Virus record (IMG/VR): IMGVR_UViG_3300042695_000536
Span: 1-64,000 of that record
Source of the DNA: a virus
Taxonomy: Duplodnaviria; Caudoviricetes
Reading direction: 5' to 3' (one strand)
Length of the DNA: 64,000 nt
Position numbers and translations under genes: made by a program. The number at the start of each line of letters is the position of its first letter. Positions within the stretch are counted from its first letter, which is position 1. This document shows, one piece after another, positions 15,319-43,169 of this stretch. Below the pieces are notes generated by a model that saw only the letters and a program-made list of their open reading frames with translations, made no database searches and was not told the DNA's origin.

Positions 15319-15716
15319 AATCATACTATCAATTTAGATCCAAATACTATCATTATATATAGTTAAACATATCTATGTAATGGAACGTTACCATTTGATG
15401 GGTCATAATGTCAATAGGGCCTATATAAAGCATATTGGCCAATATTTGTCAATAGATATTCCAGGAAATTTTTTTATTTGTTCGTAAAGAGCAATTTTGG
15501 CCCATATTTATGGCAAAAAATTATGTCTAATTCTGTATAATTTGTCTCATATAATGAGATATTCTATACAGATTTTGACAGATTTTATTCAATATGCATA
15601 CAAATTCCAGCGTATTTTTACATGCGTCGTAAAGAAGAAATTTGGCCCATAAGATGGGCATACAAAAATGGGACATATAGCTAATTAAAGCCATATGCCC
15701 CATAGGGGAAGTTATA

Positions 15717-16061
15717 TTAGAATGAATCTAGATCCATTATGTATTTGCTATCTCTTACTCTTGTTTCTTCAAGGGATTTAATAGTTAGGTTTCTATCCAC
15801 CGCCCCGTATTTTGCCTCAATCATATCGTTGAGAGCATCAGCCAGAAGCAATCCTTCGGATGTGTATCCCTTGTCCCATTCTGACTTTAATCTAAGGGAA
15901 TTGTATTGGATAATATATCTAACTAGTTCCATTAGCCTGTCTTGGGTGTATAAGGTATGTTCAGTTGTTAATACATTTGCCATTACGGCAGGGGAGAAGT
16001 TAGCATTGTTTAGATAGTCTGTTAGTTTTTCTGCTGCTTTGAATTCGTTCGCTTTAGCCAT
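15717..16061 (-). CDS. hypothetical early protein
   Basis: AACGAAAGG RBS; promoter at 16083-16104. Confidence 0.8.
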   Translation of the reverse strand: MAKANEFKAAEKLTDYLNNANFSPAVMANVLTTEHTLYTQDRLMELVRYIIQYNSLRLKSEWDKGYTSEGLLLADALNDMIEAKYGAVDRNLTIKSLEETRVRDSKYIMDLDSF

Positions 16062-16175
16062 TGAGTTCCGCCTTTCGTTTTGATTATACCATTGACCACT
16101 GACATTTGTAAATGAAGCGAGGTTCCTCCCCTTTCCCGTTTTCCCACAGAGAGGAGGAACCCCACACTTAGTTTA

Positions 16176-16328
16176 TTACTTGACGTTCTTCTTGTCTGTG
16201 AAGACTACGCCCTCTTGTGCTGCCTTGCTGATAACGCCTAGAGCTGCAGCTGAAAAGCGGCCACGCTTGCCCACAGAAATTCCCTGGGTCTTGAGGTACT
16301 CACGAGTTGTTGTTGGTGTTGATGTCAT
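16176..16328 (-). CDS. Lsr2-like DNA-binding domain protein, 50 aa
   Basis: TREYLKTQGISVGKRGRFS parallels the Lsr2 C-domain IREWA...G..VS.RGRI; GAAAGGA RBS. Confidence 0.7.
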   Translation of the reverse strand: MTSTPTTTREYLKTQGISVGKRGRFSAAALGVISKAAQEGVVFTDKKNVK

Positions 16329-16474
16329 TTGTTTGATCCTTTCTAGATCTTTGTTATATATATTATATCCGAATTTCGGCGATTTGTAAATAGGTGCCGT
16401 AAAGCAAAATTTTTGCCCGTGCCCTTAGATTATGACCGTTATGTCCGAATTGTCCATAACGGCCCAACCTATCT

Positions 16475-16657
16475 TTATTCAGTTGTTAGTTCTTCTACTT
16501 GGTATGGCTCTATCTTATCTTTACGATTGGCACCCTTTTGCCATTCTTTCTTAGGTGCGGCTACTGCCTTGTACCATGCCTCATCGCTGTCCTTGGCTTC
16601 TACTACAATGTAAAATTCCTGAATGGTGTCGCCATATACTTTAAACTGTTTAGTCAT
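16475..16657 (-). CDS. hypothetical protein
   Basis: VEAKDSDEAW.KA motif common in small phage proteins. Confidence 0.7.
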   Translation of the reverse strand: MTKQFKVYGDTIQEFYIVVEAKDSDEAWYKAVAAPKKEWQKGANRKDKIEPYQVEELTTE

Positions 16658-16783
16658 AGTTCCACCTGTTCTATCTTGTCTTTAATTAGTTTAGCAATGA
16701 TGTTGTGTGCCTCGATGTTTTCTGTTTCGGACCCACCCCACAAAAGCTTTTGGGCTTTACTAAGTTGATCGTTTAAGTACTTA

Positions 16784-17116
16784 TCACTCATCTTCATCTT
16801 CGTCGTCCTCCTCTTCTTCATCTTCCTCAAACATTGTGTCCACAATGTATTCACGATTCATCATCCATTCAAGGACATCTTCGTTGTGCTGTTCGGCACC
16901 GTACTCCAGAGAGAACCCCATACCAGCCTCCACAGCCTCACAGAGGTGGCCCCACATGTCATCTAGGGTGCAGTTCTGCTTGTAGGTCTCATCCTCAAAT
17001 ATGTTGTTAATTGTTGACCAAGTCCACAACCAAACTAATGATAGACCTAGGTCAGTGCTGTCTAGAATCTCTAAACACTTGTTTAGTTTATCTTTATCGT
17101 CAGGCTTCATTAGCAA
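16784..17116 (-). CDS. acidic hypothetical protein
   Basis: Overlapping-gene operon; poly-acidic tail. Confidence 0.7.
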   Translation of the reverse strand: MLMKPDDKDKLNKCLEILDSTDLGLSLVWLWTWSTINNIFEDETYKQNCTLDDMWGHLCEAVEAGMGFSLEYGAEQHNEDVLEWMMNREYIVDTMFEEDEEEEDDEDEDE

Positions 17117-17390
17117 ACTCCAAATCTATTCTTGATTGAATTGCAAATGATAGTTCATATGTTAGTTGATATAGTTCGACTAGAGTATCTAGTCGTCCTT
17201 CACATTCTGTTCGGACCATAGAATCCATTGCCTCTTCAGACAACTCCTCCTGTGCTAATGCGTCCTTTAAATCTTGCTCGGCAATTAGCATTAAGTTCTT
17301 TAGTTCTCCGTGCATTATATCTAATCCGCTAACACCCGCATTAACCAAACGCTGTAGGTGCGGAGGGAGCCCAATGTCTTCTTGATTCAT
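17100..17390 (-). CDS. hypothetical protein
   Basis: Coupled operon gene. Confidence 0.7.
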   Translation of the reverse strand: MNQEDIGLPPHLQRLVNAGVSGLDIMHGELKNLMLIAEQDLKDALAQEELSEEAMDSMVRTECEGRLDTLVELYQLTYELSFAIQSRIDLEFANEA

Positions 17391-17593
17391 TATATTACCT
17401 CATAGTTCACTAGTGTTGATTCATTTAAGTTGTTTGCCCAATCAGGCTTTCCTTCTACCCAATCATATTCAATATCGATATCTCCTCCGCCTTCGGCAGG
17501 AGCACCAATTGTGATTACCAATTCTGTCCCGTCCTCAAAAAATATTTGTTCAACGGCGGAACGATAAGTAACTTCTCTAGATGATATGTTCAT
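17390..17593 (-). CDS. hypothetical protein
   Basis: AACGAAAGG RBS; promoter 17618-17639. Confidence 0.7.
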   Translation of the reverse strand: MNISSREVTYRSAVEQIFFEDGTELVITIGAPAEGGGDIDIEYDWVEGKPDWANNLNESTLVNYEVI

Positions 17594-17835
17594 TAATATA
17601 CCCTTTCGTTATCAATCATTATATCAGTAGCCACTGACAAAATATGTTCCATAGTATCAATGGCACCCATATAATAACTATCTGATTCGAAGTATTCATC
17701 TTCAGGAATAGGAATATTATTTCTAGCATCTTCTAAATCTTGTTCTAAACTAATCTTATGTATCTTTAGATACTCCATAAAATGTGATGACTTAGTCAAA
17801 ATAACCCTCCGCCCAAAGCCCCTGGAGGAAGTCAT
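17593..17835 (-). CDS. hypothetical protein
   Basis: YYMGAID motif; true start probably downstream of the one listed. Confidence 0.6.
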   Translation of the reverse strand: MTSSRGFGRRVILTKSSHFMEYLKIHKISLEQDLEDARNNIPIPEDEYFESDSYYMGAIDTMEHILSVATDIMIDNERVY

Positions 17836-18101
17836 TTGTTTTTAACAAGCCTTCATTTAATATTGACTTGTCCATTAAATCGGACGGGGTTCTAAGATAA
17901 AATAACTTAGCATCATGTACTGAGTTAATCATCTCATCAAGATCATCTTTAGTATAACCTAGCATTCTATTGCCTCCATATATTTAATCATAGTATTAAG
18001 TGTTATATGAATGTGACAATCACAATCATCTGATGTATCTCTATCATCAAAATGGATTAAGTTGTCATCATAGATATAATCAATTAGTTCTTGGCTGGTA
18101 A

Positions 18102-18314
18102 TCATAGGAGGAATTCATCTCCTTCAATATAACCATAGTACTCATTGTATGATTGTTTTAAGTTATCAGGAGCAAATTGCATGAACATATATTCAGCATA
18201 ATCGCTGCCCTCATCTAAATTTTTGCTGTTCCATTGTTCAAAGAGATGTTGCTCAATATCTACTTGAATTGCTCCAAGGATATGTTCTCCTACTGTATCT
18301 GTAAATGCTTCCAT
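18102..18314 (-). CDS. acidic hypothetical protein
   Basis: Coupled to upstream gene, GGAAG RBS. Confidence 0.7.
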   Translation of the reverse strand: MEAFTDTVGEHILGAIQVDIEQHLFEQWNSKNLDEGSDYAEYMFMQFAPDNLKQSYNEYYGYIEGDEFLL

Positions 18315-19048
18315 TATGCTTCCGCCTTTCTATATTCGGGTACTTTAGTGTCTAAGTATATCTTATGGGTCTGACAAATTGCTACAGCCTCTAGGTCAGC
18401 ATTGCCTAGCCAGTTGCAGTTGCCACAGATTTCACCGCAGTCATTGTCGCAGTATTCCATTTGGTCAGTTGCATCACAATCACGGCACATGTTATCGTAT
18501 TCTGATTCTGATATAACTTCTCCACGGAGGAATTCCATTTCCCCACCCCAACCTGTTTCTTCTTCATATGATAAAGTAAATAGTAGTGTTGGGTATTGTG
18601 CAGATAGTTTAGAGATAGCACCAAGAGGTCGTGACCATGCAGTGTTAAAGTTGTAATGAACTACATAGTTCTCACCGTTTTCTGCTTCTTCAATAGTTGT
18701 ATCAGGATACTTATTACCCTCGGCTACAGCAACATCCCACTTGGTTCCCCACTCACGCACATTAAAGTTGTACCAGTCATTGGTCTCAAACTTCATTGCC
18801 TGAGAAAAGTCGGTGGAACGAGGAGGCTGTCCATGATATACCTCATCAGTAATACCAGCATCTCTATAGTTATAGATATTATGAAAAGCAAAGATAGGAT
18901 TAACATACTTAGTCTGCTTGACATCATATGATAAATCACCTACTGCAGTAATAGAATAAACAAATGGCTTATTCATTTGTTTGATTAGAGATTTTACTTG
19001 CTCAGGATTACCTTCAATAGTTAATCCATTAAATACCCAATTTGGCAT
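18314..19048 (-). CDS. DUF1281/YubB (Api92-like) protein with Cys-rich tail
   Basis: MPNWVFN.L.I.G; WY.FN...WGTKWD; F.TAWS.P; YEE; start after AACGAAAGG. Confidence 0.8.
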   Translation of the reverse strand: MPNWVFNGLTIEGNPEQVKSLIKQMNKPFVYSITAVGDLSYDVKQTKYVNPIFAFHNIYNYRDAGITDEVYHGQPPRSTDFSQAMKFETNDWYNFNVREWGTKWDVAVAEGNKYPDTTIEEAENGENYVVHYNFNTAWSRPLGAISKLSAQYPTLLFTLSYEEETGWGGEMEFLRGEVISESEYDNMCRDCDATDQMEYCDNDCGEICGNCNWLGNADLEAVAICQTHKIYLDTKVPEYRKAEA

Positions 19049-19228
19049 TTTATATCCTTTCGTTGATATGTTCCAATTATACAATGGACCACTGACATTT
19101 GGAATAGCAAATAGGTGTGTTTCACACCACATTTTCCAAGCTATGTGGTCAAGATCACACAAATTCCTGGGAAAATTAACTTGACGTCGTAAAACAAACA
19201 TGCTACCCTCAAGTCTTTGCGGGCAATA

Positions 19229-19254
19229 GAAAACCCCCAGCTATGCTGGGGGTT
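19229..19254 (-). terminator. intrinsic terminator
   Basis: AACCCCCAGC-ATA-GCTGGGGGTT followed by T-run on - strand. Confidence 0.75.
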
Positions 19255-19260
19255 ATGAAT

Positions 19261-19336
19261 ATGGCTGCTGATTTCCAACGAAAGAAATAAACCGCTTTAC
19301 TTAGCGCCTGGCCCTAAAGACTAATAGACGCACCAT
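19261..19336 (-). ncRNA. candidate structured RNA (three-way junction)
   Basis: Stems ATGGT/GCCAT, GCGTCT/AGGCGC, ATTTC/GAAAT between a stop codon and a terminator. Confidence 0.3.
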
Positions 19337-19376
19337 TTCATTTCCTATTAAAACCAGGACCAAAGTCCTAGTCTAA

Positions 19377-19742
19377 TTATACCATAACTAGTCGACTGTA
19401 TTTATCTACGAATGCTGCAAGGGACGAGGTAAACACTACCGTGCTCAGGTCCTCTTCATACAGTGTAAAAGTTTGATTGGACCAATCAATAACAGGCACC
19501 TTATGCTCATTATCTCCTAATTGATTAATGTAGATACCCCAGCCTGTTTTTTCAGTCCAGTCTTCTCCAATTAGATTAGATATAGCAATGCGTGTTGCAT
19601 ATGATTCATCCTGCCAGCGAGGCTCTGCAGCCTGCACAGCATTGGCCAACTTGGCTAGCATATTATGCCCAGCCCAGTGTCCATATAGAAATAGTACATT
19701 CTCCTTGGAATCTCTGAATCCAAAGTTTGCTCTGTCGCCCAT
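19377..19742 (-). CDS. hypothetical protein
   Basis: MGDRAN...LYGHWAG...RW.D.SYATRI. Confidence 0.8.
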   Translation of the reverse strand: MGDRANFGFRDSKENVLFLYGHWAGHNMLAKLANAVQAAEPRWQDESYATRIAISNLIGEDWTEKTGWGIYINQLGDNEHKVPVIDWSNQTFTLYEEDLSTVVFTSSLAAFVDKYSRLVMV

Positions 19743-19743
19743 T

Positions 19744-19953
19744 TTATTCCGCCGTTTCTAGTTGAGGGATTGCTTCTTCCGTTTTGTTTAATTCTATCAC
19801 TTCGTATGCGACCTTGTCAAGGCCACGCTTGCTTGCGTTGTAGTGGTGACCGCAAAAGAAAAGCTCACCATCTACTAGTTTAACCATATACATTGCTTGG
19901 GCTGTGCCACATTGGTCACATGCTATCCATCTTGTTAGATCTTCCATTGTCAT
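19744..19953 (-). CDS. zinc-binding small protein
   Basis: CDQCG..A...L.FCGHH, a pattern known from small actinobacterial proteins. Confidence 0.7.
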   Translation of the reverse strand: MTMEDLTRWIACDQCGTAQAMYMVKLVDGELFFCGHHYNASKRGLDKVAYEVIELNKTEEAIPQLETAE

Positions 19954-20105
19954 AGTGCTCCACCTTCAATCATCTCAGAAAGACGATCAAGGATCCAGGA
20001 ATCAATGTCGTTGATATCAATCTCTGATAACTTTTCCATGATTTCATCACGGGCAAACTTATACCCATCGTCCCAACCATCTTTATAGTCTGACATAATT
20101 TCTCC

Positions 20106-20309
20106 TTAATAACCTGTGGTTTCGTAGTCTGATATGTAAGATTCAGTTAAGTTATACTTATCACGAATTCTACTTACTTTCTCAATACTACCAGTTCCAA
20201 TGTTGAATGTCAACGGTGACATTGCTTGCGGGTCCAGCCCAATAATTTGTGCATCCCAATAGGCCATCTCCATGGATAGCCTATCAGGAGCAGTCAACTC
20301 AAAATACAT
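20106..20309 (-). CDS. hypothetical protein
   Basis: Coupled operon gene, GGAG RBS. Confidence 0.7.
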   Translation of the reverse strand: MYFELTAPDRLSMEMAYWDAQIIGLDPQAMSPLTFNIGTGSIEKVSRIRDKYNLTESYISDYETTGY

Positions 20310-20983
20310 TAGCAGTTCTCCCTAATGTTGCAGATTTCTTGGTCAACAACTTCAATGTTGCCATTGTGTGAATCAGCATAAAGAGCATCTTCAATTTCTG
20401 AATCTAAGTCAAAATGAGTATCCTCAAGTAGGTTGACTGAAATAGTTCCGCTAACTTCAATAGATGCAGACCATTCAATCTCTCTAATTAATTCAATCTC
20501 AAGCGCTTCTGCAATTGCTTGCAAAGTTTCTTGGTCTTCTGAATCAGCATATGCCTCTGAAATAATATCTTTAACTAAGCCAATCTTATTCTGTAAAGAT
20601 GAGACTGCCTTAGAATTTGTGCGACCATTATGCAGTTCGTATTCAATGTTGCGAACTTTATCTGTAGCATATTCAGCATCCGAATAACCACGGATTACTT
20701 TGTATGTAACTAATTGGTCAGGGTTGTACTTCTCTGCATCTGATAGAGGCAGGTTTTCTACTGTCATTCCGTCCATATTGCTTCCTTCTTTCGTTTGGTT
20801 TAAGGATGTAATTGTAGCATGCTCCACTGACACTAATGTGGTCTTACGGCCACACGGGCATGTGAGTTCTGTCACACCTGATGGAAAGCCAAATCCATCA
20901 GATGATGTTAATTGGATTAAACAATCACACTCATCTGGGTCACAGACAAATGTGTACACGCTTGATACTAGTTCGTTGGTCAT
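20309..20983 (-). CDS. hypothetical protein with two in-frame starts (20983 leaderless, 20776 internal)
   Basis: Each start has its own TGTCAG promoter; the N-terminal extension has CDPDEC...CPC. Confidence 0.7.
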   Translation of the reverse strand: MTNELVSSVYTFVCDPDECDCLIQLTSSDGFGFPSGVTELTCPCGRKTTLVSVEHATITSLNQTKEGSNMDGMTVENLPLSDAEKYNPDQLVTYKVIRGYSDAEYATDKVRNIEYELHNGRTNSKAVSSLQNKIGLVKDIISEAYADSEDQETLQAIAEALEIELIREIEWSASIEVSGTISVNLLEDTHFDLDSEIEDALYADSHNGNIEVVDQEICNIRENC

Positions 20984-21084
20984 GTACAGAATTATACAGG
21001 ACCCCACTGACATTTACAATAGATTCCAGGGAATTTAAATGTGAGTCGTAACACACTTTTTGCCCCCTTAGCTTTGAGGGCGCT

Positions 21085-21161
21085 TGGCGATCCATAACGG
21101 ACTTGAACCGTCGGCCTCTACCGTGACAGGGTAGCGCTCTAACCAACTGAGCTAATGGACC
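21085..21161 (-). tRNA. tRNA-Asp(GTC)
   Basis: GGTCCATTAGCTCAGTTGGTTAGAGC-GCTACC-CTGTCAC-GGTAG...GGTTCAAGTCC...CCA cloverleaf, 77 nt. Confidence 0.95.
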
Positions 21162-21172
21162 AAGAAAAAATG

Positions 21173-21200
21173 TGAGCAGTTTTAAATCTTGCTCAGGATT
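21173..21200 (-). ncRNA. 3'-UTR H-type pseudoknot, copy 1
   Basis: AATC-CTGAGCAA-GATT-TAAAAC-TGCTCA. Confidence 0.5.
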
Positions 21201-21208
21201 ATTTTTAT

Positions 21209-22216
21209 TTAGAAAGCAGAAATCAATTTCTTGATTTTGTTTTTCTCAGCGGTTAGCACTGGGTCAAATCCTGATGCGCCAGCCATAAGCGTTTCAGAAT
21301 TTCCACGACCTGAGCGATAGTAATCAAGGCGTTCGGTGAGAGCATTAAACGCACCCCATTTAGTTCCCTTGATGTTAGCATTAGTTGGTGAGTTATGGTA
21401 AAGGTCATCAAGTAGCACGACCTTATTCTCCCATTTAGTTAGCGCAACTTTAGCAGCATCATCAGCAGGCTTTGGATAAATTGTGTGAATTAACTTTGAG
21501 AATTCAGCATCAGTAATTGACTGAGAATAAAGTGCTTGCGCTTCCTTCTCGAATTCATCAAAGTAACCAAGAGCAAGCCCAAGAGTTTCACGAGCAACTT
21601 GAATGCGACCTTCAACAGATTGCGTATGACGAATCTTGAAAGATTGCTTAGCGTTACGCATGGCAAGATTCAATGTGTTTTGGCATACAACACGAACAGG
21701 AGTAACAGCAGCCTGAACAGCAACTGACCCGTCATGTGATGTCCATACAATTAAATAGAGTTTAGTTTCATCGTTGGCACCTTGTGGGTCAAGAACCATT
21801 GTGCGAGGAATATCAACAGTGCCGAATACAACTTTGCCCTTTTTCAATGAGCCAGCAGATTCCCAACGGCAGTCAGCGTTCGCATCATGAATAGCATCAG
21901 CGAATGCGAATAATTCTTCATTCTGTACAGGCTTGTAACGCTTGCCAACAGTGGCAAGAACATCAGTTCCCTTATTGAATGGATTGTCACGAATGACAAG
22001 AGATGCGGTAGAGACATCATTCCAAGATTCTGGAATGTGCTCAGTGATTGGAGATAGACGAACATTCCAATTTGCCAACTTTGCTTCTTCAAGCATTAGG
22101 GCGGTAGTAACTTCTTCATCTTTTGTGAAGATGCGATTTGCTAGGTTGTGCCAAGCAGGTGCGCCACGGAGAGCGAAAGCAACTTCGCCGTTTTCCATTT
22201 CTAGATTGTGAGCCAT
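21209..22216 (-). CDS. DUF932 (TIGR03299-like) phage/plasmid protein
   Basis: PAWH.L; VGKRY.PVQN; ESAGSL..G; SHDGS; TPVRVVCQNTL; IRHT. Confidence 0.9.
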   Translation of the reverse strand: MAHNLEMENGEVAFALRGAPAWHNLANRIFTKDEEVTTALMLEEAKLANWNVRLSPITEHIPESWNDVSTASLVIRDNPFNKGTDVLATVGKRYKPVQNEELFAFADAIHDANADCRWESAGSLKKGKVVFGTVDIPRTMVLDPQGANDETKLYLIVWTSHDGSVAVQAAVTPVRVVCQNTLNLAMRNAKQSFKIRHTQSVEGRIQVARETLGLALGYFDEFEKEAQALYSQSITDAEFSKLIHTIYPKPADDAAKVALTKWENKVVLLDDLYHNSPTNANIKGTKWGAFNALTERLDYYRSGRGNSETLMAGASGFDPVLTAEKNKIKKLISAF

Positions 22217-22416
22217 ATATTTTTTACCTTTCGTTTGATTAGTCATAAGTATAACAGGTGCCACTGACATTGTCTAGGATTAGATACAATATGTCCGAAT
22301 TGATCCATGTGATTAATCTCACAAAATTCCAGGGATATCCACAGGCAGTCGTAACCCTGTGGATAACCCCTTACCTTTACGGGCCAGCTGCAGGATATGC
22401 AGCTAGTGTTAGATCT

Positions 22417-22671
22417 TTACAGACCTAACTCATCCCTGGTTAATTGATTCTTTCGATTGAAGTTAATAACTTCGGCGGGAAGATAAAGAGCAGTTGTCTT
22501 AGTCTTCTTCAATGTATCATACACATAAGCACGAACATCACCAAAAAAGTTACGGCGATTAGAGAATGCTAATTCAGTTAAGTATTCCTTATCAACGCCT
22601 TGCTCTGAATAAATTGTTACATCATTTAACTTGTTCTCATCATAGATTTCTACTCTGAAACGATTTTTCAT
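22417..22671 (-). CDS. hypothetical protein
   Basis: AAAGG RBS. Confidence 0.7.
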   Translation of the reverse strand: MKNRFRVEIYDENKLNDVTIYSEQGVDKEYLTELAFSNRRNFFGDVRAYVYDTLKKTKTTALYLPAEVINFNRKNQLTRDELGL

Positions 22672-22706
22672 TTTGTTGCCTTTGTTAGTAGTTGTCCCAA
22701 AAGGGA

Positions 22707-22733
22707 GAGCAGTTTGGCGACATACTCAGGTCG
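22707..22733 (-). ncRNA. 3'-UTR H-type pseudoknot, copy 2
   Basis: CGAC-CTGAGTAT-GTCG-CCAAAC-TGCTC. Confidence 0.5.
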
Positions 22734-22742
22734 TTGGATTAT

Positions 22743-23165
22743 TTACAGATAACGAGCAACCGCATTGTAAGTGCTGGTATTAACAACTTCCTCATCTGTC
22801 ATTTTAAGAATACGAATTGCGTTTTCCATTTCCTCTTTCATCTCATTGTATGAGTGGCGGTGGATTACTTCGTAGTCCTTCTCAGGTTCAGCAGGGAAGT
22901 TTCCTTCCTTTGTGATGATGTCAAAATCAACATTGAGAGTGTTGTTCCAGTTGCGATAGTTTGTGCGTAGGTTTTCAGCCTTTGAGAAGTTAGCAATAGC
23001 CCACTTTCCAATTTCCTTTTTCCACGCTTCTACCTGCTTGTTATACTTTGCTTCGTTTGCTTCTTGTGATGCGAAGTCTTTATTTAGTTGTGCCAACTTT
23101 GTTTCCAAAGCCTTGATTACTCGCTGAGTTGGGATTTTCACCGAGATTGCTTTTCCTCTAGCCAT
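22743..23165 (-). CDS. hypothetical coiled-coil protein
   Basis: Own promoter 23205-23226 and AAGGA RBS. Confidence 0.8.
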   Translation of the reverse strand: MARGKAISVKIPTQRVIKALETKLAQLNKDFASQEANEAKYNKQVEAWKKEIGKWAIANFSKAENLRTNYRNWNNTLNVDFDIITKEGNFPAEPEKDYEVIHRHSYNEMKEEMENAIRILKMTDEEVVNTSTYNAVARYL

Positions 23166-23251
23166 TTGTTTCCTTCTTTCGTTGTGGGTTGGGTTGATGA
23201 AGTAATTATAGCAGGGAGGTCTGACATTTCTGCGACCCCCCTGCCTTTAGA

Positions 23252-23434
23252 TTATACGCCTAGTAGTGTTTGAGCGGATACGGAAGTCCAACGAGTTTCC
23301 TTGTTTGGCATTTCCAATAGCACACGCACCGAGCCAGATGTTTGTGGGTGGATTTCTTTAATCACACCTGTTTTCTTTGACTTAAGGGTAGTGAATAAAT
23401 CGCCTACCTGATACAACTTGTCGTTGATTGTCAT
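23252..23434 (-). CDS. small SH3-like beta protein
   Basis: YQVGD...TGVIKEI...RWTSV. Confidence 0.7.
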   Translation of the reverse strand: MTINDKLYQVGDLFTTLKSKKTGVIKEIHPQTSGSVRVLLEMPNKETRWTSVSAQTLLGV

Positions 23435-23531
23435 TTATTGCCTCTTTTCTTTGTTAGGTTGGTAATTATAGCATTGGGGTCTGACATTAGTCTAGCCCTA
23501 TCTCATTATTTGAGAAAGTTATTGTGTGACC

Positions 23532-23795
23532 TTAGTCACTTTCAGGTAGCCAAGCGTCTAAGTGGTGCTGTTCGATAATAGCCCACGCTGGCGCATGAGA
23601 GTCACCCTTATAAGATACGCCTTCAGGCATTTCGATCAACTTATTATAATCCTCATCATAGTAAGCATCAATAGCCTCGATACAAGGCTGTACCATAGAA
23701 AGTGGGACGGGCGGGTAATGATTACCCTGTAAGTGATAACCTAGTGCTACCTCTAAATCTAATTCAGTTAAATCTAATGCTGTATTGTATCCCAT
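23532..23795 (-). CDS. hypothetical protein
   Basis: HLQGNHYPPVP...HHLDAWL. Confidence 0.75.
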   Translation of the reverse strand: MGYNTALDLTELDLEVALGYHLQGNHYPPVPLSMVQPCIEAIDAYYDEDYNKLIEMPEGVSYKGDSHAPAWAIIEQHHLDAWLPESD

Positions 23796-23998
23796 TATTC
23801 TGCCACCTTAAGAATTGCGTATGAGCCATTAGCATTTATCTCATCAAGAATTGGTTGTAGTCGGCTACCGACTAAATCTTTTAGCATTGACTCTAGCATA
23901 AAGATACGAGTATCCTCATCAAGCATTTCTATTTGCTTAGTTACTGGATGGCCGTCCTTAAACTCTGTTACGAACTTCAGGTTGTGTTCTATTCTCAT
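23795..23998 (-). CDS. hypothetical protein
   Basis: AACGAAAGG RBS; promoter 24028-24049. Confidence 0.75.
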   Translation of the reverse strand: MRIEHNLKFVTEFKDGHPVTKQIEMLDEDTRIFMLESMLKDLVGSRLQPILDEINANGSYAILKVAE

Positions 23999-24277
23999 TT
24001 GTTGCCTTTCGTTGTTGGTATAAGAGTATTATAGCCTATGCCACTGACAAATTGCTCAACACGCCCAAGCTTTATCTAATTTATTTTGTGATTAATCTCA
24101 CAAATTCCAGGGGGTTGTGGATAACGCCCGTAACCCTGTGGATAACCCCGCAGCTTTACGGGCGGGCAGCGTCATTGATCAAATTTATTTTTATGTTTTA
24201 TTTTTCTAAAATATTTTTTCTTATTGCGTACAGGTTGCGCCGCATTACTGCGACGCAATTCCTGTATGCGTTTAACT

Positions 24278-24469
24278 TTATCTCGAAGTGAATTTTGTGA
24301 CATGGTATCCACACGCTTTATGAAATCGGTTTACATCAAATCGCTCATTATCTTTTGCGAACATAACTGCGAAATCATTTACAATTTTAGAAAATAAAGC
24401 AGGGTGCGCCTTATCACTAGCAAAGTTTAAAATTTCTGCTACTGCGACATAATCTTTTCTTGTCATCAT
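24278..24469 (-). CDS. small protein, paralog of the C-half of 51104-51577
   Basis: TRKDY..VAE.L...FAKDNERFD..RF..ACG. Confidence 0.8.
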   Translation of the reverse strand: MMTRKDYVAVAEILNFASDKAHPALFSKIVNDFAVMFAKDNERFDVNRFHKACGYHVTKFTSR

Positions 24470-24672
24470 TTTGTTACGACCTTTCGACCTTCACGATAAA
24501 ATGTTTTTGTGTACATCTTGCCAGTTGGCGTCATTAAATTTACAGTTGAGTATTCGTTAGCAAATCCCCAATCGGTAAATGAAAGAAATGCGGTGAACGC
24601 TTCTAAAGCGTCATCATAGTTTTTATTCCAATGGATAGGCTTGCTATCGTAGGAAATTGTTATTTGGTACAT
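24466..24672 (-). CDS. small protein, paralog of the N-half of 51104-51577
   Basis: DWGFANEYSTVNL..P.G. Confidence 0.8.
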   Translation of the reverse strand: MYQITISYDSKPIHWNKNYDDALEAFTAFLSFTDWGFANEYSTVNLMTPTGKMYTKTFYREGRKVVTK

Positions 24673-25028
24673 TAGTCATTTTCCCCGTTCTTAAATAAAG
24701 AGCCATCTTGACAATCGCAAGGCTCGCAATCAAAATCATTATCATCACCAAAAAAGATTACGCCATGACCTAAGCAATCTTGGCAATCTATTGTTAATAC
24801 TGAGTTAATCATTAGTGTTGTTCCTCGCAATCTTTGTCATAGTCAAATCCGCAAAAGTAGCAACCCATAAATTCTAGGTGTTCGATACAGTAATACTTAA
24901 ATTGACTTTCATCACAACAAAAATGTTGCTCGTCTGCGATTTCATAGAAATCGGTTTTGTCGATTATGTTTAACATAGTTTTCCTTTCGTTTGTTTATTC
25001 TGTAATTATAGCGGATAGCACTGACAAA

Positions 25029-25238
25029 TTAGTCAGATACCCTAACCGCAATGGTTGCCCAAAAGTTTTTGATCCCACGGGTTGGGCGAACCTCGATAGC
25101 GTAAGCCTCTAGGTTTTCTCCGTACCAAATTGCGTCACGCTTTGTTGCGTATACGATAGTTCCCTCGTCATGGCGAGAGTGTGAGCGATAGTGTTTTCCC
25201 TCTAAGAGGCTTTCGATAGTGTATGCTTTTGCTGACAT
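25029..25238 (-). CDS. hypothetical protein
   Basis: AACGAAAGG RBS; promoter 25271-25292. Confidence 0.75.
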   Translation of the reverse strand: MSAKAYTIESLLEGKHYRSHSRHDEGTIVYATKRDAIWYGENLEAYAIEVRPTRGIKNFWATIAVRVSD

Positions 25239-25563
25239 GAGTTGTCACCTTTCGTTTGTTGATACTGGCAATTATAGCCTATGCCACTGACATTTTCACA
25301 TTACTGGCGAGTAATTCCACATTTTGAGACGCTCAAGTCGTGTGATAAAAATCACAAAATCTCGGGCGTGTCGCAAATTCCAGGGGTTGTGGATAACCCC
25401 CGTAACCCTGTGGATAACCCCGCTCTTTTGCGGGCGCATCAACTTTTGTCAAGTCGACACGCCGCTGTTTATTCGAAATCTTTAAAAATTTCTTCAAGCT
25501 TTAGAATTTGCTCATCTGTTAAATGATCAATTTCAATTGCTTTTTCAAATCCAAAAAAATCCA

Positions 25564-25758
25564 TTATTCGTTTTCCATTTCTGCTAAATAATCTTCATGT
25601 TCAATTAGTCCGATTGAAAAAGCGATTGGGTCGCAACATTCCAAAATTTCGGCGGGAGTAAAAGTAGAGTAACCAATTTTTACAGTAGGGTAAACATCAT
25701 TTAGTAAATCAATAAAGCTTTCTTTAATTTCTAAATCTTTTTCGAAATCTGATTTCAT
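25564..25758 (-). CDS. hypothetical protein
   Basis: VKIG..TF.PAEIL..CDPIAF. Confidence 0.7.
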   Translation of the reverse strand: MKSDFEKDLEIKESFIDLLNDVYPTVKIGYSTFTPAEILECCDPIAFSIGLIEHEDYLAEMENE

Positions 25759-26053
25759 TCGCTTAACTCCAATTCGGTATAATCAACAACAATAAAATCA
25801 AGTCGCTCTAATGGAACAACCTTTAACCATGATAAGGCAGACTCAAAATCATCTGCCTCAACAGTAACGGATAAATCAAAATTAAATACAGCCATTTAGT
25901 TAGTTTCCTTATCTTTTAGTATGTTTAGAATAATCTCTAATTGCTTAGTGCTTAGTAACGCTTGAGCGCAACCCCACTTAAAGGCTAAATCCATTTCGCC
26001 ATAGTGCTTTTTAGCAAGAGTTGTTATTTCTTGCGTTACCTCAAAATTAGTTT

Positions 26054-26248
26054 TCATTTAGTTAAACTCCAATCGGAATAAAATGGTAAGCGGTCATAGT
26101 CATCATAGAAATAGACTCTATCTATGTTCTGCTCGCATGTTTCGCAGAAAGTGTATTCGACATCTACACCCATGCCATAGGTAGTAGATACGCTCTCCAT
26201 GTGTGGAGTGTGTGTATGTGTATTTGTTAGTGTAGTCATAGTGACCAC
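26054..26248 (-). CDS. small Cys/His protein
   Basis: H.H.PH...FCETCEQ. Confidence 0.65.
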   Translation of the reverse strand: MVTMTTLTNTHTHTPHMESVSTTYGMGVDVEYTFCETCEQNIDRVYFYDDYDRLPFYSDWSLTK

Positions 26249-26592
26249 CTTTCTTTTTCGTTATGGTAGTATTTTACCACGGGGGTCTGACATTTATCTA
26301 CCTACTAGCCAGTAATTCCAAATAATGAGACGCTCAGCCTATGTGATAGTAATCACAAAATCTCGGGCGTGTCGCAAAACCTGGGGGTTGTGGATAACCC
26401 CCGTAACCCTGTGGATAACTCCCGCAAGTACTTGCGGGCCAGCTTGACAATGTCAAGCCGACACGCCGTTAGGCTAGTGTGAGTTAGCCCACTCTCGGTA
26501 ATCCGCTACGATCTCACGCCATACAAGGCGGAGCATAATTAGGGCGGGAATACCAATACCTAATTGGACTAGTGTAGTAAGTAGTCTATTCA

Positions 26593-26784
26593 TTACTCTC
26601 CCCATGTATCATTAGTATTAGTAGGCAAGCAATTGCCTAGTGTTCGATTATTCTTTACTCTTTTATAAATCTTATAACCGATAAAAACAACGGAGGACAA
26701 GATAAGGAAAGCCCATGATAGGGATAAGTAAATAAAATCACCCATGTCAAGCATAAAGCCGTATTCATTTAGTTCGATAGTCAT
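26593..26784 (-). CDS. small membrane protein
   Basis: GAGGT RBS; one hydrophobic segment followed by basic residues. Confidence 0.65.
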   Translation of the reverse strand: MTIELNEYGFMLDMGDFIYLSLSWAFLILSSVVFIGYKIYKRVKNNRTLGNCLPTNTNDTWGE

Positions 26785-27060
26785 TACTTATTTACCTCTA
26801 CTTCTCTAATGTTGTAAGTGAAACCCTTACCTAGTTTATTTAGTTCGTTCATTACTGTTAGCAATTCATCTGCGCTAGTAGCCTTGTTATTAACGCTTAG
26901 TAGTTGGCTACCTTGCCAAAGTGTGTAAGTGATTATCATTAGTAAGTATCCTCTACGCCTAGTTCATAGGACTTGTTTAGTAGTGTTAGTAGTTCAGGTG
27001 TTACAGTAAATCCGTTAGCCTTAGCCATGTCGGCTAGTGTATCCATTGGGTACATCATTA

Positions 27061-27243
27061 TTAGTTCTCCCATGTTAGTTGGTAAAGTTTTGCTAGTGCC
27101 TCATCATCTGAGTCATCAAATTCATCTAGTGGAGGTTGTTCCTCATCTACCTCATCAAGGTATGCGTATGCGTCTGCGACATCTGATTGGATAGTATCCC
27201 ATTTAGATACGCTATTAGTTTCGTATGAGTATGCGTATGACAT
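27061..27243 (-). CDS. very acidic small protein (possible DNA mimic)
   Basis: AAGGAG RBS; Asp/Glu/Tyr-rich with only two Lys. Confidence 0.65.
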   Translation of the reverse strand: MSYAYSYETNSVSKWDTIQSDVADAYAYLDEVDEEQPPLDEFDDSDDEALAKLYQLTWEN

Positions 27244-27449
27244 TATTTATTCATCTCCTTAGCGATTGTATCGGACTTACGCAAAGCCTCTAGGGCTATT
27301 GCTAGGGAGGCAAGGCGTTGCGCCTCTACCATTTGCTTGTATTCATCTAGTGTCATTTATTCTGACCTTTCGTTGTTGTTATTCTGTAATTGTAGCATGG
27401 GGGTCTGACAAATTGGGGAGGTTGGGCTAGCGTGTCGCTGTGAGGTGTG

Positions 27450-27620
27450 TCACATGCCTCTCTTGAGGCGAATAGCCTCGACCTGTGCTAATTGCTCAGG
27501 TGTAGCGTTGCGGAAAGCCTGTACGCTCTCTCTAATCCAAGGTGACTTAGCCATAGCCTTTTCGTGAGCGATAGCGTTTCGCTCTTGTTGTTCTTTTCTA
27601 ATTCGTTCTAGTGTATTCAT
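27450..27620 (-). CDS. first gene of the - strand block
   Basis: AACGAAAGG RBS; promoter 27656-27677. Confidence 0.7.
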   Translation of the reverse strand: MNTLERIRKEQQERNAIAHEKAMAKSPWIRESVQAFRNATPEQLAQVEAIRLKRGM

Positions 27621-28152
27621 TAGATGATTACCTTTCGTTTGTTTGTTATACCTTAAGCATAGCATGGGGGTCTGACAAATGTCTAATCCAAAATGCGTAT
27701 AATTCGGACATTGTGAGATGTATCACAAAAAAATCGTGTGAGATGAGTCACAAATGACCATTCATTATGGGCGCACTATCCGAAATGTCCGTTTTGCCTA
27801 AATTGTGTATCATACATGTAAAAAATATATTAACATTTTCTTAAATCTGAAAAAGCAGTCAACTAGAATAAATGGCGGGGAATATGGTAAGATACTACTT
27901 GATCAACATAGCTGTTATATAAGCTATTGACTTTGGTAAAAGTAAAATGCTACACTTAGTTTGCTTTGTGGGGGGCTTACCCTGAAACTCAATATGTACC
28001 AGATAACATCTGTGGATATATGTTCCAGGAATTGCTTTCTCTATCTTTCCAAAAAGAAAAAATTTGGGGGGTAGGGGGGCTTTCCTAAAATCTAATATAC
28101 CCAGATAAAAAGTTAAAAAAGATAAAGAATATAAGACAAATAGGTGATAAGT

Positions 28153-28554: not shown

Positions 28555-28813
28555 ATGGAGTATAATATTACTATGCTAGCCTATGATGTTCCTCTTTCCG
28601 CCCTCCTTTTTATCGTATATGCTGGTGTACCAGCAGAAAATAATATAGGGCCTACTGAGGAGCAATTGGACGAGTATATAGCGATGTTAAAAAGAATTCA
28701 GGACTATGGTCTCTAATTTTCGGCTCACTTTTCGCCGCACTTTTTAGGACATTGAATCTGTAGAATATGTAGGGTATAATATACTTATTCTTAAAAATTA
28801 AAGGAGATACACG

Positions 28814-29649: not shown

Positions 29650-30300
29650 TTAATTTTTGTAAAAGTTAGGTATTTTTATAAAAGCTGGAAGTACATATCT
29701 TGTAGGTCCTTCTGTTACAAATCTTACTCCATGCTCCCATTCTGGATCCCCACCAAATAGTAAAAGATCTCCAGGTTCTGGTTTCATTTCAAATCCTTTT
29801 TTAGCCCAAAAAATTTCACCACCGTTATAATCATTATTTATGTATATAACTCCAGCGTGTTGTATGGATTCATCTGTATTTTGATCATGATGAGATACTA
29901 GCTGTACCCCATCATACATTCTCTGTATAAAATAAAATCCACTTAGTAAAAGCCCTTCTTTGGTTTTTTCAAGCACATCATTAAATCTTTTATCTATTCT
30001 TCTATGTATATCTGAGTTAATGAAGGATACGTTTTTATCATTCCAGTTTAATGTTACTTCGTATAAACCTTCTTTAACTAAATTTTCTATATCTTCCCTG
30101 CCAAATTTTTCTTTTGTAAAAACCTTTAGCTGGTCTGTATACCACTTATCCCATTGTTCTTCAGAGGTGTTATTTATTATACCCATGTATTCTTCAATGT
30201 CTTCTTTCGTTATAAAGTTTTTAACAACAAGCAATCCATCAATAGGAGTTTCTACGGTATATCCGCTTTCTTCAAATTCTTTTTTCATCCAAGTGGTCAT
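29650..30300 (-). CDS. 2OG-Fe(II) oxygenase, P4Hc-like
   Basis: HHD; IYINNDYNGGE; HGV...G.TRY. Confidence 0.88.
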   Translation of the reverse strand: MTTWMKKEFEESGYTVETPIDGLLVVKNFITKEDIEEYMGIINNTSEEQWDKWYTDQLKVFTKEKFGREDIENLVKEGLYEVTLNWNDKNVSFINSDIHRRIDKRFNDVLEKTKEGLLLSGFYFIQRMYDGVQLVSHHDQNTDESIQHAGVIYINNDYNGGEIFWAKKGFEMKPEPGDLLLFGGDPEWEHGVRFVTEGPTRYVLPAFIKIPNFYKN

Positions 30301-30312
30301 AGTATTATTGTA

Positions 30313-30945
30313 TCATTCCTTCCACATAATAGCTTGGCCAGTAGGTAGCTCAAGTATATTGTGATCTTCAAAAGCGTCTTTTACAGCTTTTCTAGATCCT
30401 TCTGTTTTGTAAGAACCGTAGTCATCACATATTAATACTCCGCCAGAAACTATTTTAGGCCAAAAATATTCTATTGATTCTTTTGTTGGCTCGTATAAAT
30501 CTACATCTACATGTACAAATGAATACTGTTTTTCTTCAAGGTCTTTAAATACTTCTGGTATCCAGCCTTTTTTTAATTCTATATTTTTGTATCTAGATAG
30601 GTTATTTTTTGCCCACGCCATTTCAGATTTTAGTTTTACTGTTTTAAAGTATTCTGTATCAAACTCTCCTGGCTCAGAAACGCCTTCCCAAGAATCAATT
30701 CCTATAAAAGATTTGTTGCAAAACTCGGCGGTAAAGAACATTGTCATTCCAGCATAAACACCAGTCTCAGCAAAGTTTAAATTTGGATTGATTACAGATT
30801 GATGTTTTGCCAGCTGTCTTAATATAGATATTCTTCCGTACTGAGCATTGTCCATAGAATTCTGTATGTTACATATTAAATTAAAATCATTATGTAGTTT
30901 TACAAAATCTTGGTCTTCAGTCCATCTGCTTAAATATGAGTCCAT
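30313..30945 (-). CDS. TylF/MycF-like O-methyltransferase
   Basis: ETGVYAG; DSWEG; KGW; VHVDVDLYE; GGVLICDDYG. Confidence 0.9.
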   Translation of the reverse strand: MDSYLSRWTEDQDFVKLHNDFNLICNIQNSMDNAQYGRISILRQLAKHQSVINPNLNFAETGVYAGMTMFFTAEFCNKSFIGIDSWEGVSEPGEFDTEYFKTVKLKSEMAWAKNNLSRYKNIELKKGWIPEVFKDLEEKQYSFVHVDVDLYEPTKESIEYFWPKIVSGGVLICDDYGSYKTEGSRKAVKDAFEDHNILELPTGQAIMWKE

Positions 30946-31070
30946 TTTGCTCCTTAAACAAAAAACCCCAAAGGAGGCGGATCCTTTAGGGTCTTTGTTG
31001 CGTTATATCCGCATAGTGTAATTAATATCACACACTTATATTGTAGTATATTTTTTTTGACAAAGCAATA

Positions 31071-42900: not shown

Positions 42901-43169
42901 CATTAACTGAAAGAGATGATCTAATTGAAATGGGTTCAGCATCACCAATTACCCTTACAATTCCAACAGATGCTACACTAAATTATCCAATTGGAACATC
43001 AATTGATATTCTTCAAACTGGAGCGGGACAAGTAACAATTGCCCCAGTATCTGGAACAGTTACAGTAAATGCAACACCTGGCTTGAAGCTTCGCACAACT
43101 TGGTCATCTGCAACTCTCTTAAAGAGAGCAGCAAATACATGGGTTGTCTTTGGAGACTTGACAGCGTAA
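39966..43169 (+). CDS. long tail fibre protein
   Basis: QLRRG...W...NP.LA.GEIG.ETDT..FK.GDG (Mtd/HylP-type N-terminus); VGL.NVDNT.D..KPVS and LKAPLASPTFTGTV repeats. Confidence 0.85.
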   Translation: MATVRLQLRRGEADQWVAANPTLAPGEIGIETDTNTFKFGDGSTPWNSLSYALSQTVDDYILLSTKGVANGVASLDSSGFIPSAQLPPLAKVTVSSAANQAARLALTAEPGDIAIQSDNGTTYVLASSPASTNGNWREISATAAISAAIATHEADTTSVHGIADTSLLATTANVATAKSEAISAAATAAGTALSTHEADTTSVHGIADTSLLATTANVATAKSEAISAAATAAGTALSTHDVDTTGVHGIADTAELATKTYANSAVTTAVSALTKSSVGLSNVDNTSDLSKPVSSATLTALDLKAPLSSPALTGDATAVNLTLSGNLTVNGTTSTINSTTLTVQDKDIVLGQTSSPTDAAADNGGIILKGTTDKSIKYSVAKSAWDVSENINIPADKSIKINNIEVLTLTTIFGKSLPDVVVGTTETQNLTNKTLNSPIINTPTGITKSDVGLSNVDNTADSAKPVSTAAQSALDLKAPLASPTFTGTVTLPVGTVTSGMIADGSIMNADINAAAEIATSKIAGLDTALGLKAPLASPTFTGTVTLPAGTVTSGMIADGAILDSDISGAAAIATSKISGLDTALDLKAPLASPTFTGTVSGITKSMVGLGSVDNTTDAEKPVSTAAQSALDLKAPLASPTFTGTVSGITKAMVGLTNANDTSDLAKPISTATQAALDLKAPLNSPTFTGTVVLPSTTSIGLVDLSELGYVNGVTSSIQTQIDSKAPLASPTFTGTVTLPSGTVTSGMIADGAVATADVADLAISTGKIADAAVTTAKIADDSITSAKIVSGTIVNSDINASAAIDWTKLAISSTVDSTEIGYVNGVTSAIQTQLTAGVTALSTHEADTTNIHGIADTSLLVTTTGTQTLTNKTITSPSGLVKADVGLANVDNTADSAKPVSTAQATAIATAKAEAISDATSQVNALLSGAPAALNTLDELAAALGDDANFAASVTTSLGLKVDSLTPISQKTASYTLSSLTERDDLIEMGSASPITLTIPTDATLNYPIGTSIDILQTGAGQVTIAPVSGTVTVNATPGLKLRTTWSSATLLKRAANTWVVFGDLTA
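40416..40687 (+). repeat. 132-bp tandem duplication inside the fibre gene
   Basis: ACTCACGAAGCAGATACAACAAGC... at 40416 and 40548, apparently identical. Confidence 0.9.

Follow-up and report, generated by a model that had tools for sequence, protein, structure and literature searches.

The first 64,000 nucleotides of the IMG/VR virus record IMGVR_UViG_3300042695_000536 (hereafter the window) contain a minus-strand block of small genes preceded by a repeated element, TGTCAG-N10-TAnnnT, and the 15 copies of this element in the block are best explained, from their sequence, as promoters of the actinobacterial PafBC class. We further propose, at a probability of roughly 0.6, that the PafBC of the host, activated by single-stranded DNA (ssDNA), recruits host RNA polymerase with the sigma factor SigA to these promoters. 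Each promoter would comprise a -26 element (aaTGTCAG followed by W-S-S), a 10-nt gap behind the hexamer, and a SigA-type -10 (TAtAAT, often preceded by TGn), mostly with no -35. The host PafBC heterodimer would place polymerase bearing the housekeeping sigma factor on them, an arrangement termed “sigma adaptation”, and, with ssDNA as the activating signal, transcription of some 39 small genes, which probably act early or in host takeover, would be tied to ssDNA in the infected cell, whether this came from entering or replicating phage DNA, nuclease attack, or ultraviolet (UV) damage. A sequence-only reading of the same DNA had already named PafBC as the early activator; its promoter class and its actinophage setting are supported here, the PafBC system occurs in stand-in hosts, no WYL gene was found in the phage genomes searched, and the use of PafBC by the phage is what we infer from these results.

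A one-strand promoter array and its conservation

The window holds 17 matches to TGTCAG-N10-TAnnnT, every one on the minus strand, against a mean of 0.75 and a maximum of 3 in 100 dinucleotide shuffles of the window. Fifteen fall within the ~12 kb between 16083 and 27677; the remaining two (40437 and 40569) are identical copies within a repeat of the plus-strand open reading frame (ORF) 39966-43169 and do not belong to the promoter set. When spacers of 7 to 14 nt were scanned in the block, 15 sites appeared at 10 nt, one at 8 nt (25218), and none at 7, 9, 11, 12, 13, or 14 nt, and the TGTCAG hexamer itself occurs there 17 times on the minus strand and never on the plus strand. The sequence-only reading had listed 14 of these sites, with every left end correct and a spacer of 10 throughout, as the scan bears out; it overlooked the fifteenth, at 18355-18376, and saw none elsewhere in the window, where the two further matches are the copies in the coding repeat.

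An ORF follows each of the 15 sites in the ORF map. At 14 of them the start codon lies 21-40 nt past the -10, after a Shine-Dalgarno sequence of the (A)CGAAAGG type, and at the other (20991-21012) an ATG stands 7 nt past the -10, making it a leaderless candidate. The earlier description of the elements as directly upstream of genes is right in this sense and needs qualifying for three sites that are not intergenic: 18355 and 17618 fall within the 3' ends of the preceding ORFs, and the leaderless candidate ORF contains 20811. Outside the block, the promoters of the window are plain TGnTAtAAT or TTGACA-N17/18-TATAAT types without TGTCAG, much as had been described before, and the block therefore has a promoter class of its own.

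The array is conserved well beyond the window. A DUF932 search of IMG/VR gave 265 relatives, of which we kept the 80 that are at least 91% identical in the DUF932 protein; across these related loci (1.30 Mb) the motif occurs 1157 times in sense and 4 times in antisense orientation, and a reversed-pattern control matches 12 times. Five near-complete relatives (96-100% complete) each carry 14-17 sites in a single block of ~9-11.4 kb and 0-2 elsewhere, with 1-3 control matches. We profiled 600 unique cores from the window and the 80 relatives, in which the search pattern itself fixes the motif bases: the hexamer is TGTCAG in 565 and TGTCGG in 35, preceded by a constrained aAA and followed by T/A, G/C, G/C (W-S-S) and then c. 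The post-hexamer triplet is TGG in 242 cores, ACC in 144, TGC in 68, and TCC in 51, and the -10 is constrained to cTGc followed by TAtAAT, with at most 0.16 bit of information at positions -12 to -4.

Because this profile is conditioned on the search pattern, we added an unconditioned test in which upstream regions were anchored on the DUF932 coding start (the anchor was present in 63 of 81 sequences, these being the 80 loci and the window, yielding 42 unique regions). The motif at promoter 9, which precedes the DUF932 gene, is kept in 42 of 42, with aTGTCAGTG and cTGTTATACT near-invariant and the spacer and -35 zone variable. A TTGACA-like -35 falls below 5 of 6 matching bases in 84% of 737 unique clade-A sites, and the best -35 likeness is only 4-5 of 6 at 7 of the 15 window sites. 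A plain -35/-10 promoter reading was considered and is rejected for most sites on the core profile and this -35 count.

A separate IMG/VR scan for a longer form of the motif returned at least 119 stretches. Among the 80 of these examined, 28 are close relatives and 13 are divergent stretches, with 1-15% nucleotide cover to the window, that carry single-strand arrays of 3-12 sites. Protein comparison of 7 of these 13 showed that their sites are followed by genes homologous to those of the window's block, with DUF932 about 50% identical in five, and the 82 unique sites of the 13 loci show the same hexamer and flavours as the close clade. Scanning relatives, as the sequence-only reading had advised, thus found the array kept both in the 80 close relatives and in a divergent lineage. 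These comparisons bear on whether the motif is a functionless passenger of a recently duplicated intergenic cassette, as might be suspected from the several repeated elements common to the cassettes and from sites 24028 and 25271, which are identical across 22 nt. We find this hardly credible: flanks and spacers vary between sites, some sites lie inside coding ends, and the motif persists amid variable surroundings in every orthologous region of the anchored test and again in a lineage of ~50% protein identity.

Match to the PafBC class and to host-type genomes

In the published account, the in vivo consensus of Mycobacterium smegmatis PafBC is tGTCgg(N10)tA(N3)T, the 5' part of which spans -23 to -28; actinobacteria strictly conserve the GTC, the promoters lack a -35, and PafBC inserts between DNA and domain 4 of SigA (PMC8635444). 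All 15 block sites read TGTCAG and so retain the GTC, and all 15 place the hexamer 10 nt from a SigA-type TAnnnT; the promoter class named by the sequence-only reading therefore fits in hexamer, invariant GTC, and exact geometry. Its exact match at 24028-24050 to TTGTCAGTGGC-N6-TAnnnT, which it gives as the Streptomyces recA promoter form, is likewise present in the sequence. That ssDNA activates PafBC is reported in PMC11804915.

We take the phage to be a lytic-type siphophage that infects lake actinobacteria, with a genome of ~115 kb and a distant relationship to the Streptomyces Stanwilliamsviridae. The window (38% G+C) is part of a 72,284-base record, estimated to be 60% complete; among its genes are those for portal, protease, head, tail fibre, and ribonucleotide reductase, and its portal shares 57% identity with that of ~131-kb Streptomyces phages of the Stanwilliamsviridae. 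A WhiB-family protein scores above the Pfam cut-off in all five near-complete relatives, full genomes of close relatives span 115-117 kb, and, of 631 records of DUF932 homologues in cultured phages, 552 come from phages of Mycobacterium, Streptomyces, Microbacterium, Arthrobacter, Gordonia, and Rhodococcus. At least 79% of sampled words are present in 18 lake-water DNA runs. From the portal, WhiB, DUF932 homologues, and lake-run word content we therefore regard it as an abundant lake actinophage, in keeping with the actinobacterial setting assumed earlier; the leaderless candidate promoter, together with WhiB, the portal, and the DUF932 homologues, also counts toward an actinobacterial host. 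No nucleotide match to the block was found among cultured phages.

As host-type genomes we used 12 small actinobacterial genomes (1.3-1.9 Mb) from the class to which an ‘Aquiluna’ metagenome-assembled genome (MAG) belongs. In 10 of the 12, TGTC[AG]G-N10-TAnnnT lies 170-231 nt before the recA ORF, and the other two have only degenerate forms. Seven of the ten elements read TGTCAGTGGC, one TGTCAGAGGC, and two TGTCGG; TGTCAGTGGC is also the first ten bases of phage sites 4, 6, 9, and 14, and six of the seven recA promoters that carry it continue ..CTGCTA, like the phage consensus cTGc-TA. The phage element is thus the same as the host-type element, even in its TGG/ACC alternation and in the cTGc that precedes the -10. 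All 12 genomes encode a tandem pair of WYL ORFs (300-345 aa), on the same strand and separated by about 0.93 kb, which we read as PafB and PafC; the earlier reading had suggested looking for pafBC and for such sites in candidate hosts. One such pair matches solved structures of PafB (9fnd, 7p5x; E ~1e-38) and PafC (7p5x_AX; E 2e-22) and contains an RMFERDK motif identical to that of the M. smegmatis chain, whose two arginines would, from their spacing, be the published GTC-reading R46 and R50. Across the 12 genomes we counted 61 copies of the motif in its W-S-S form, or 2-8 per genome, compared with 14 control matches.

In eight of the small genomes a LexA-type box (TCGAACAGATGTTCG) abuts the recA -10. 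Among eight further host-type sites, two, before a LysM gene and a DUF6504 gene, also have a LexA-type box behind them, one lies before a DEDDh exonuclease, and at four a start codon stands 6-7 nt past the -10. A LexA-type box thus stands directly after a PafBC-type -10 at recA, LysM, and DUF6504 genes, and such a fusion would place one promoter under both damage systems.

What reads the hexamer

Profile searches found no WYL domain in the 72-kb record (60% complete) or in the five near-complete relatives, which answers the earlier reading's call to look for a phage-encoded WYL protein; WhiB, Lsr2, and Sigma70_r2 were absent from the 72-kb record, which is only 60% complete, and Sigma70_r4 and HTH_11 gave nothing above threshold in the five near-complete relatives. 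With no WYL activator or sigma factor found in the phage, host PafBC is therefore the likeliest mechanism. The hexamer might instead be read by another factor, either an early-made or injected phage protein or a different host regulator, that replaces -35 recognition in the manner of T4 MotA/AsiA, and its likeness to the PafBC motif would then be convergence or mimicry. The sites are assigned to PafBC by their sequence, most block proteins have no known family, further conserved elements occur in the promoter cassettes, and all five near-complete relatives encode both a WhiB-family protein, of a family that binds sigma region 4, and a conserved 46-aa helix-turn-helix ORF. The latter, which lies outside the window, falls below threshold (Sigma70_r4, 21.8 bits against a cut-off of 24.1) and sits between a RuvC-like ORF and a 113-aa ORF, a recombination-type neighbourhood far from the block. 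We nevertheless consider such a factor unlikely, as the hexamer, the flanking W-S-S/C, the TGn, and the exact spacing all match the host motif, seven host-type recA promoters share TGTCAGTGGC with phage sites, the searches above returned no WYL, Sigma70_r2, or above-threshold r4/HTH_11 gene, and a phage activator of the first genes would need to be injected.

The promoters could also be constitutive extended -10/SigA promoters, with TGTCAG serving either as a sponge for PafBC, whose removal would blunt the host's DNA-damage and defence response, or as an operator at which PafBC or another protein exerts restraint. The near-consensus -10 boxes are compatible with this, as are the TGn extension, carried by 9 of the 15 window sites and by 379 of the 600 unique cores, the presence of a -35 in 16-20% of sites, and the service of other genes by TGTCAG-less TGnTAtAAT promoters. 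A phage genome carries 14-17 sites against 2-8 strict sites per host-type genome, as a sponge might, and pafBC has been linked to mycobacteriophage resistance in a 2025 paper, known to us through its citation in PMC12848934. A sponge would not require exact register with the -10 or placement on one strand before genes, and in about 80% of sites the -35 zone has decayed while TGTCAG was kept, which would be expected if TGTCAG had taken over the role of the -35. We regard this alternative as improbable, more so than a non-PafBC factor.

Several observations nonetheless weigh against recruitment by host PafBC. Most window -10 boxes are near-consensus and many are extended, so that these promoters may fire without PafBC, as the TGTCAG-less TGnTAtAAT promoters presumably do, and some basal activity of the block is likely. 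A -35 of at least 5 of 6 TTGACA bases at 16-18 nt is present in 16% of the 737 unique clade-A sites, against 4% in a control register, and in 20% of unique clade-B sites, against 0%. An immediate-early block that depends on ssDNA-activated PafBC would need a ready source of ssDNA at time zero; sources of ssDNA for PafBC must moreover be local, as PMC11804915 argues. None of nine cultured actinophages, the nearest relatives included, carries a motif array: Genie2 has one match against two for the control in 131 kb, and the eight others have 0-3 scattered matches.

The cassettes also carry other elements. A palindrome resembling the CRP box (TGTGA-N6-TCACA, at most one mismatch) occurs 13 times in the window, against 2.8 expected, with 11 copies between 19144 and 27752, just upstream of TGTCAG promoters, and two at 31017 and 61977; when the window is pooled with the 80 relatives, 501 of the 786 unique promoter contexts have one upstream. 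The distance from box centre to hexamer peaks at 26.5, 36.5, 46.5, and 56.5 nt and shows a smaller peak at 41.5; these values amount to helical phasing, as is typical where an activator contacts polymerase. A second arrangement, a fixed-spacing scaffold of GGG-N13/14-TTACG-N16/17-CCWGG, has seven copies on the minus strand, none on the plus strand, and none in 200 shuffles, and six of the seven lie 13-87 nt upstream of TGTCAG promoters. Given the CRP-like boxes and the scaffold, other regulators are therefore involved, one of them possibly the real activator. The scaffold gaps hold TTATCCACA words (DnaA-box-like), once as an inverted pair able to form a hairpin, or a CRP-like box.

The host and the transcripts add further reservations. 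The host-type genomes are stand-ins chosen by size. Class II ribonucleotide reductase was tried as a guide to the host and rejected, since its 25 loci were mostly phage copies in MAGs of unrelated phyla. The phage WhiB, compared with 401 genomes of one class, reached at most 46% identity except on one ‘Aquiluna’ MAG contig at 57%, which is probably a binned phage relative, so that WhiB names no host lineage. Six metatranscriptomes hold 7-10% of sampled words, and contigs from four of these cover the block, reaching into 25-30 of 30 bins with a likeness that is mostly 90-95%; some run through a predicted promoter (for example, 27218-27424), and these contigs carry no starts, ends, or strand and may reflect DNA carry-over. 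As a separate observation, copies of the ribonucleotide-reductase region of this phage group (79-96% identical) occur in MAGs labelled Bacteroidia, Saccharibacteria, Brevundimonas, a cyanobacterium, and others, and are evidently phage contigs swept into bins.

Known systems, significance, and further features of the block

The phage elements resemble the PafBC-dependent (RecA-NDp, recA P1-type) promoters of Mycobacterium and other Actinobacteria in the GTC at -26, the 10-nt gap, and the SigA-type TAnnnT, and their extended sequence is the same as that before recA in PafBC-bearing small actinobacteria. Neither set has a conserved -35, although the lake phage keeps one at 16-20% of sites. In contrast to host promoters, those of the phage come in arrays of 14-17 within 11-12 kb, before tiny genes of unknown function rather than repair genes, have -10 boxes much nearer consensus with frequent TGn, and are mostly preceded by a phased CRP-like palindrome; at the host recA, LysM, and DUF6504 sites a LexA-type box adjoins the promoter, whereas none were seen at the phage sites. 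T4 middle promoters (a MotA box at -30 plus a -10, used in AsiA/MotA “sigma appropriation”) similarly replace the -35 with an element ~10-13 nt upstream of the -10, a parallel with PafBC promoters that is drawn in PMC8635444. T4 brings its own activator and co-activator, whereas none was found in the lake phage (MotA/AsiA homologues were not searched for), and the lake phage element is that of the host itself. Control of phages and prophages through LexA (SOS) boxes likewise couples phage genes to host DNA-damage signalling, though by repression relieved by RecA, whereas the lake phage would use a WYL activator acting through a promoter element.

The closest counterpart of the block itself is in Genie2-like phages (Stanwilliamsviridae), whose terminal-repeat blocks also consist of many small opposite-strand genes with a promoter for each or every few, and which have in common with the lake phage the ACGAAAGG-type leader and a DUF932 gene. 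Genie2 gene 4/259 (DUF932) belongs to a set of small minus-strand genes present at each end of the genome and so within a ~12-kb terminal repeat. Host-takeover and pre-early blocks lie in terminal repeats in SPO1 and T5. From its tiny genes and its homology to the Genie2 terminal-repeat block, the lake phage block is probably early. Genie2 block genes have ordinary GTGTTGCA/TTGACA-N17-TAGACT-type promoters behind the same leader, and its DUF932 orthologue has TTGACA-N17-TAAGCT; the two lineages therefore share the block and differ in promoter class.

Full-text literature searches turned up no account of a phage with PafBC-type promoters, as the sequence-only reading had supposed; the promoter class described here is a known one, and its carrier, its copy number, and its composite setting are new. 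We put forward tentatively, at somewhat less than even odds, a broader scenario in which a lake actinophage lineage rewired its takeover block by giving up the -35, making 14-17 promoters dependent on PafBC, and adding a phased CRP-type co-site, so that takeover would be gated by the host's alarm and PafBC would be drained. PafBC and other WYL regulators are switches of bacterial damage and anti-phage alarms, and if PafBC recruitment is correct, the phage would turn a defence signal into an infection signal. Under the broader scenario it would be the first virus to use a WYL-type “sigma adaptation” activator as an early switch, its earliest gene programme would be gated by the cell's DNA-damage or foreign-DNA alarm, and its amplified sites would also drain PafBC from the host repair and defence regulon. 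Coupling of infection to damage could be of ecological importance in lakes, since the hosts are exposed to strong UV. The ~600 cores, in two post-hexamer flavours and with or without a -35 and TGn, would further constitute a natural set of strong, varied PafBC-type promoters usable for dissecting sigma adaptation.

Among cultured phages, Microbacterium phage MenE (PQ362677.1, 38 kb) has two sense full-flavour sites (TGTCGGTGGC.. and TGTCGGTGCC..) against none for the control. One lies inside a RuvC-like gene, 157 nt before a RecE-like gene, and the other at the end of a DnaB-like gene that is followed by a small gene and SSB. In this phage, which can be cultured, the two sites may act as internal PafBC-type promoters of recombination genes. 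We considered MenE as a second case and set it aside as a lead, both sites being inside or at the very end of coding regions.

Table 1. Features of the small-gene block and of the sites named in other phages; positions are those of the window unless another source is given.
Feature	Position	Strand	Description
Small-gene block	15717..27677	-	~39 ORFs of 37-335 aa, 15 TGTCAG-type promoters (ORF map and motif scan)
Promoter 1	27656..27677	-	TGTCAGACC...TGC TATGCT; then ORF 27450-27620
Promoter 2	27389..27410	-	TGTCAGACC...TGC TACAAT; then ORF 27243-27356
Promoter 3	26271..26292	-	TGTCAGACC...TGG TAAAAT; then ORF 26054-26248
Promoter 4	25271..25292	-	TGTCAGTGGC...TATAAT; then ORF 25029-25238
Promoter 5	25005..25026	-	TGTCAGTGC...TATAAT; then ORF 24812-24976
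Promoter 6	24028..24049	-	(T)TGTCAGTGGC-N6-TATAAT; then ORF 23795-23998
Promoter 7	23465..23486	-	TGTCAGACC...TGC TATAAT; then ORF 23252-23434
Promoter 8	23205..23226	-	TGTCAGACC...TGC TATAAT; then ORF 22743-23165
Promoter 9	22248..22269	-	TGTCAGTGGC...TGT TATACT; then DUF932 gene and tRNA-Asp
Promoter 10	20991..21012	-	TGTCAGTGG...TATAAT; leaderless candidate, ORF 20309-20983
Promoter 11	20811..20832	-	TGTCAGTGG...TGC TACAAT; inside ORF 20309-20983, in-frame ATG at 20776
Promoter 12	19076..19097	-	TGTCAGTGG...TATAAT; then DUF1281_C gene 18314-19048
Promoter 13	18355..18376	-	TGTCAGACC...TATACT; 3' end of preceding ORF, then ORF 18102-18314
Promoter 14	17618..17639	-	TGTCAGTGGC...TGA TATAAT; then ORF 17390-17593
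Promoter 15	16083..16104	-	TGTCAGTGG...TGG TATAAT; then ORF 15717-16061
DUF932 gene, 335 aa	21209..22216	-	48% identical to Genie2 gene 4/259
tRNA-Asp(gtc)	21085..21161	-	3' of DUF932 gene, one transcription unit
DUF1281_C (Api92-like ferredoxin-like) domain protein, 244 aa	18314..19048	-	
Terminator-like hairpin	15668..15703	-	15 pairs and T run; downstream end of block
Terminator-like hairpin	19232..19254	-	10 pairs, 7 G-C; between ORF 19377-19742 and promoter 12
CRP-like palindrome, 1 mismatch	19144..19159		Upstream of promoter 12
CRP-like palindrome TGTGA-N6-TCACA	20861..20876		Upstream of promoter 11
CRP-like palindrome, 1 mismatch	21040..21055		Upstream of promoter 10
CRP-like palindrome	22308..22323		Upstream of promoter 9
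CRP-like palindrome, 1 mismatch	23525..23540		Upstream of promoter 7
CRP-like palindrome	24087..24102		Upstream of promoter 6
CRP-like palindrome	25341..25356		Upstream of promoter 4
CRP-like palindrome	26342..26357		Upstream of promoter 3
CRP-like palindrome	27439..27454		Upstream of promoter 2
CRP-like palindromes, two	27712-27727, 27737-27752		Upstream of promoter 1
Scaffold copies	26380-26423, 25380-25421, 24107-24149, 22329-22370, 21026-21067, 19166-19208, 15461-15503	-	
46-aa helix-turn-helix ORF, example neighbourhood	G004:C1:58600-59500		Near-complete relative
MenE sites	23095-23116 and 28571-28592	sense	PQ362677.1

The block runs opposite to the structural genes and closes with a strong hairpin, and nearly all of its ~39 ORFs have no known family. 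ORF 22743-23165 has a weak Pfam match to ‘Anthrax-tox_M’ (E 0.0074) that, at 16 bits, does not reach the cut-off of 25, and we attribute it to chance. ORF 20309-20983 (minus strand, 224 aa) is rich in Cys in its N-terminal part and contains a TGTCAG promoter of its own, with a Shine-Dalgarno sequence and in-frame ATG at 20776, and two products (224 and 155 aa) are therefore possible from one frame. Outside the block, one match to 2OG-FeII_Oxy_3 and one TylF-type methyltransferase lie at 29650-30945.

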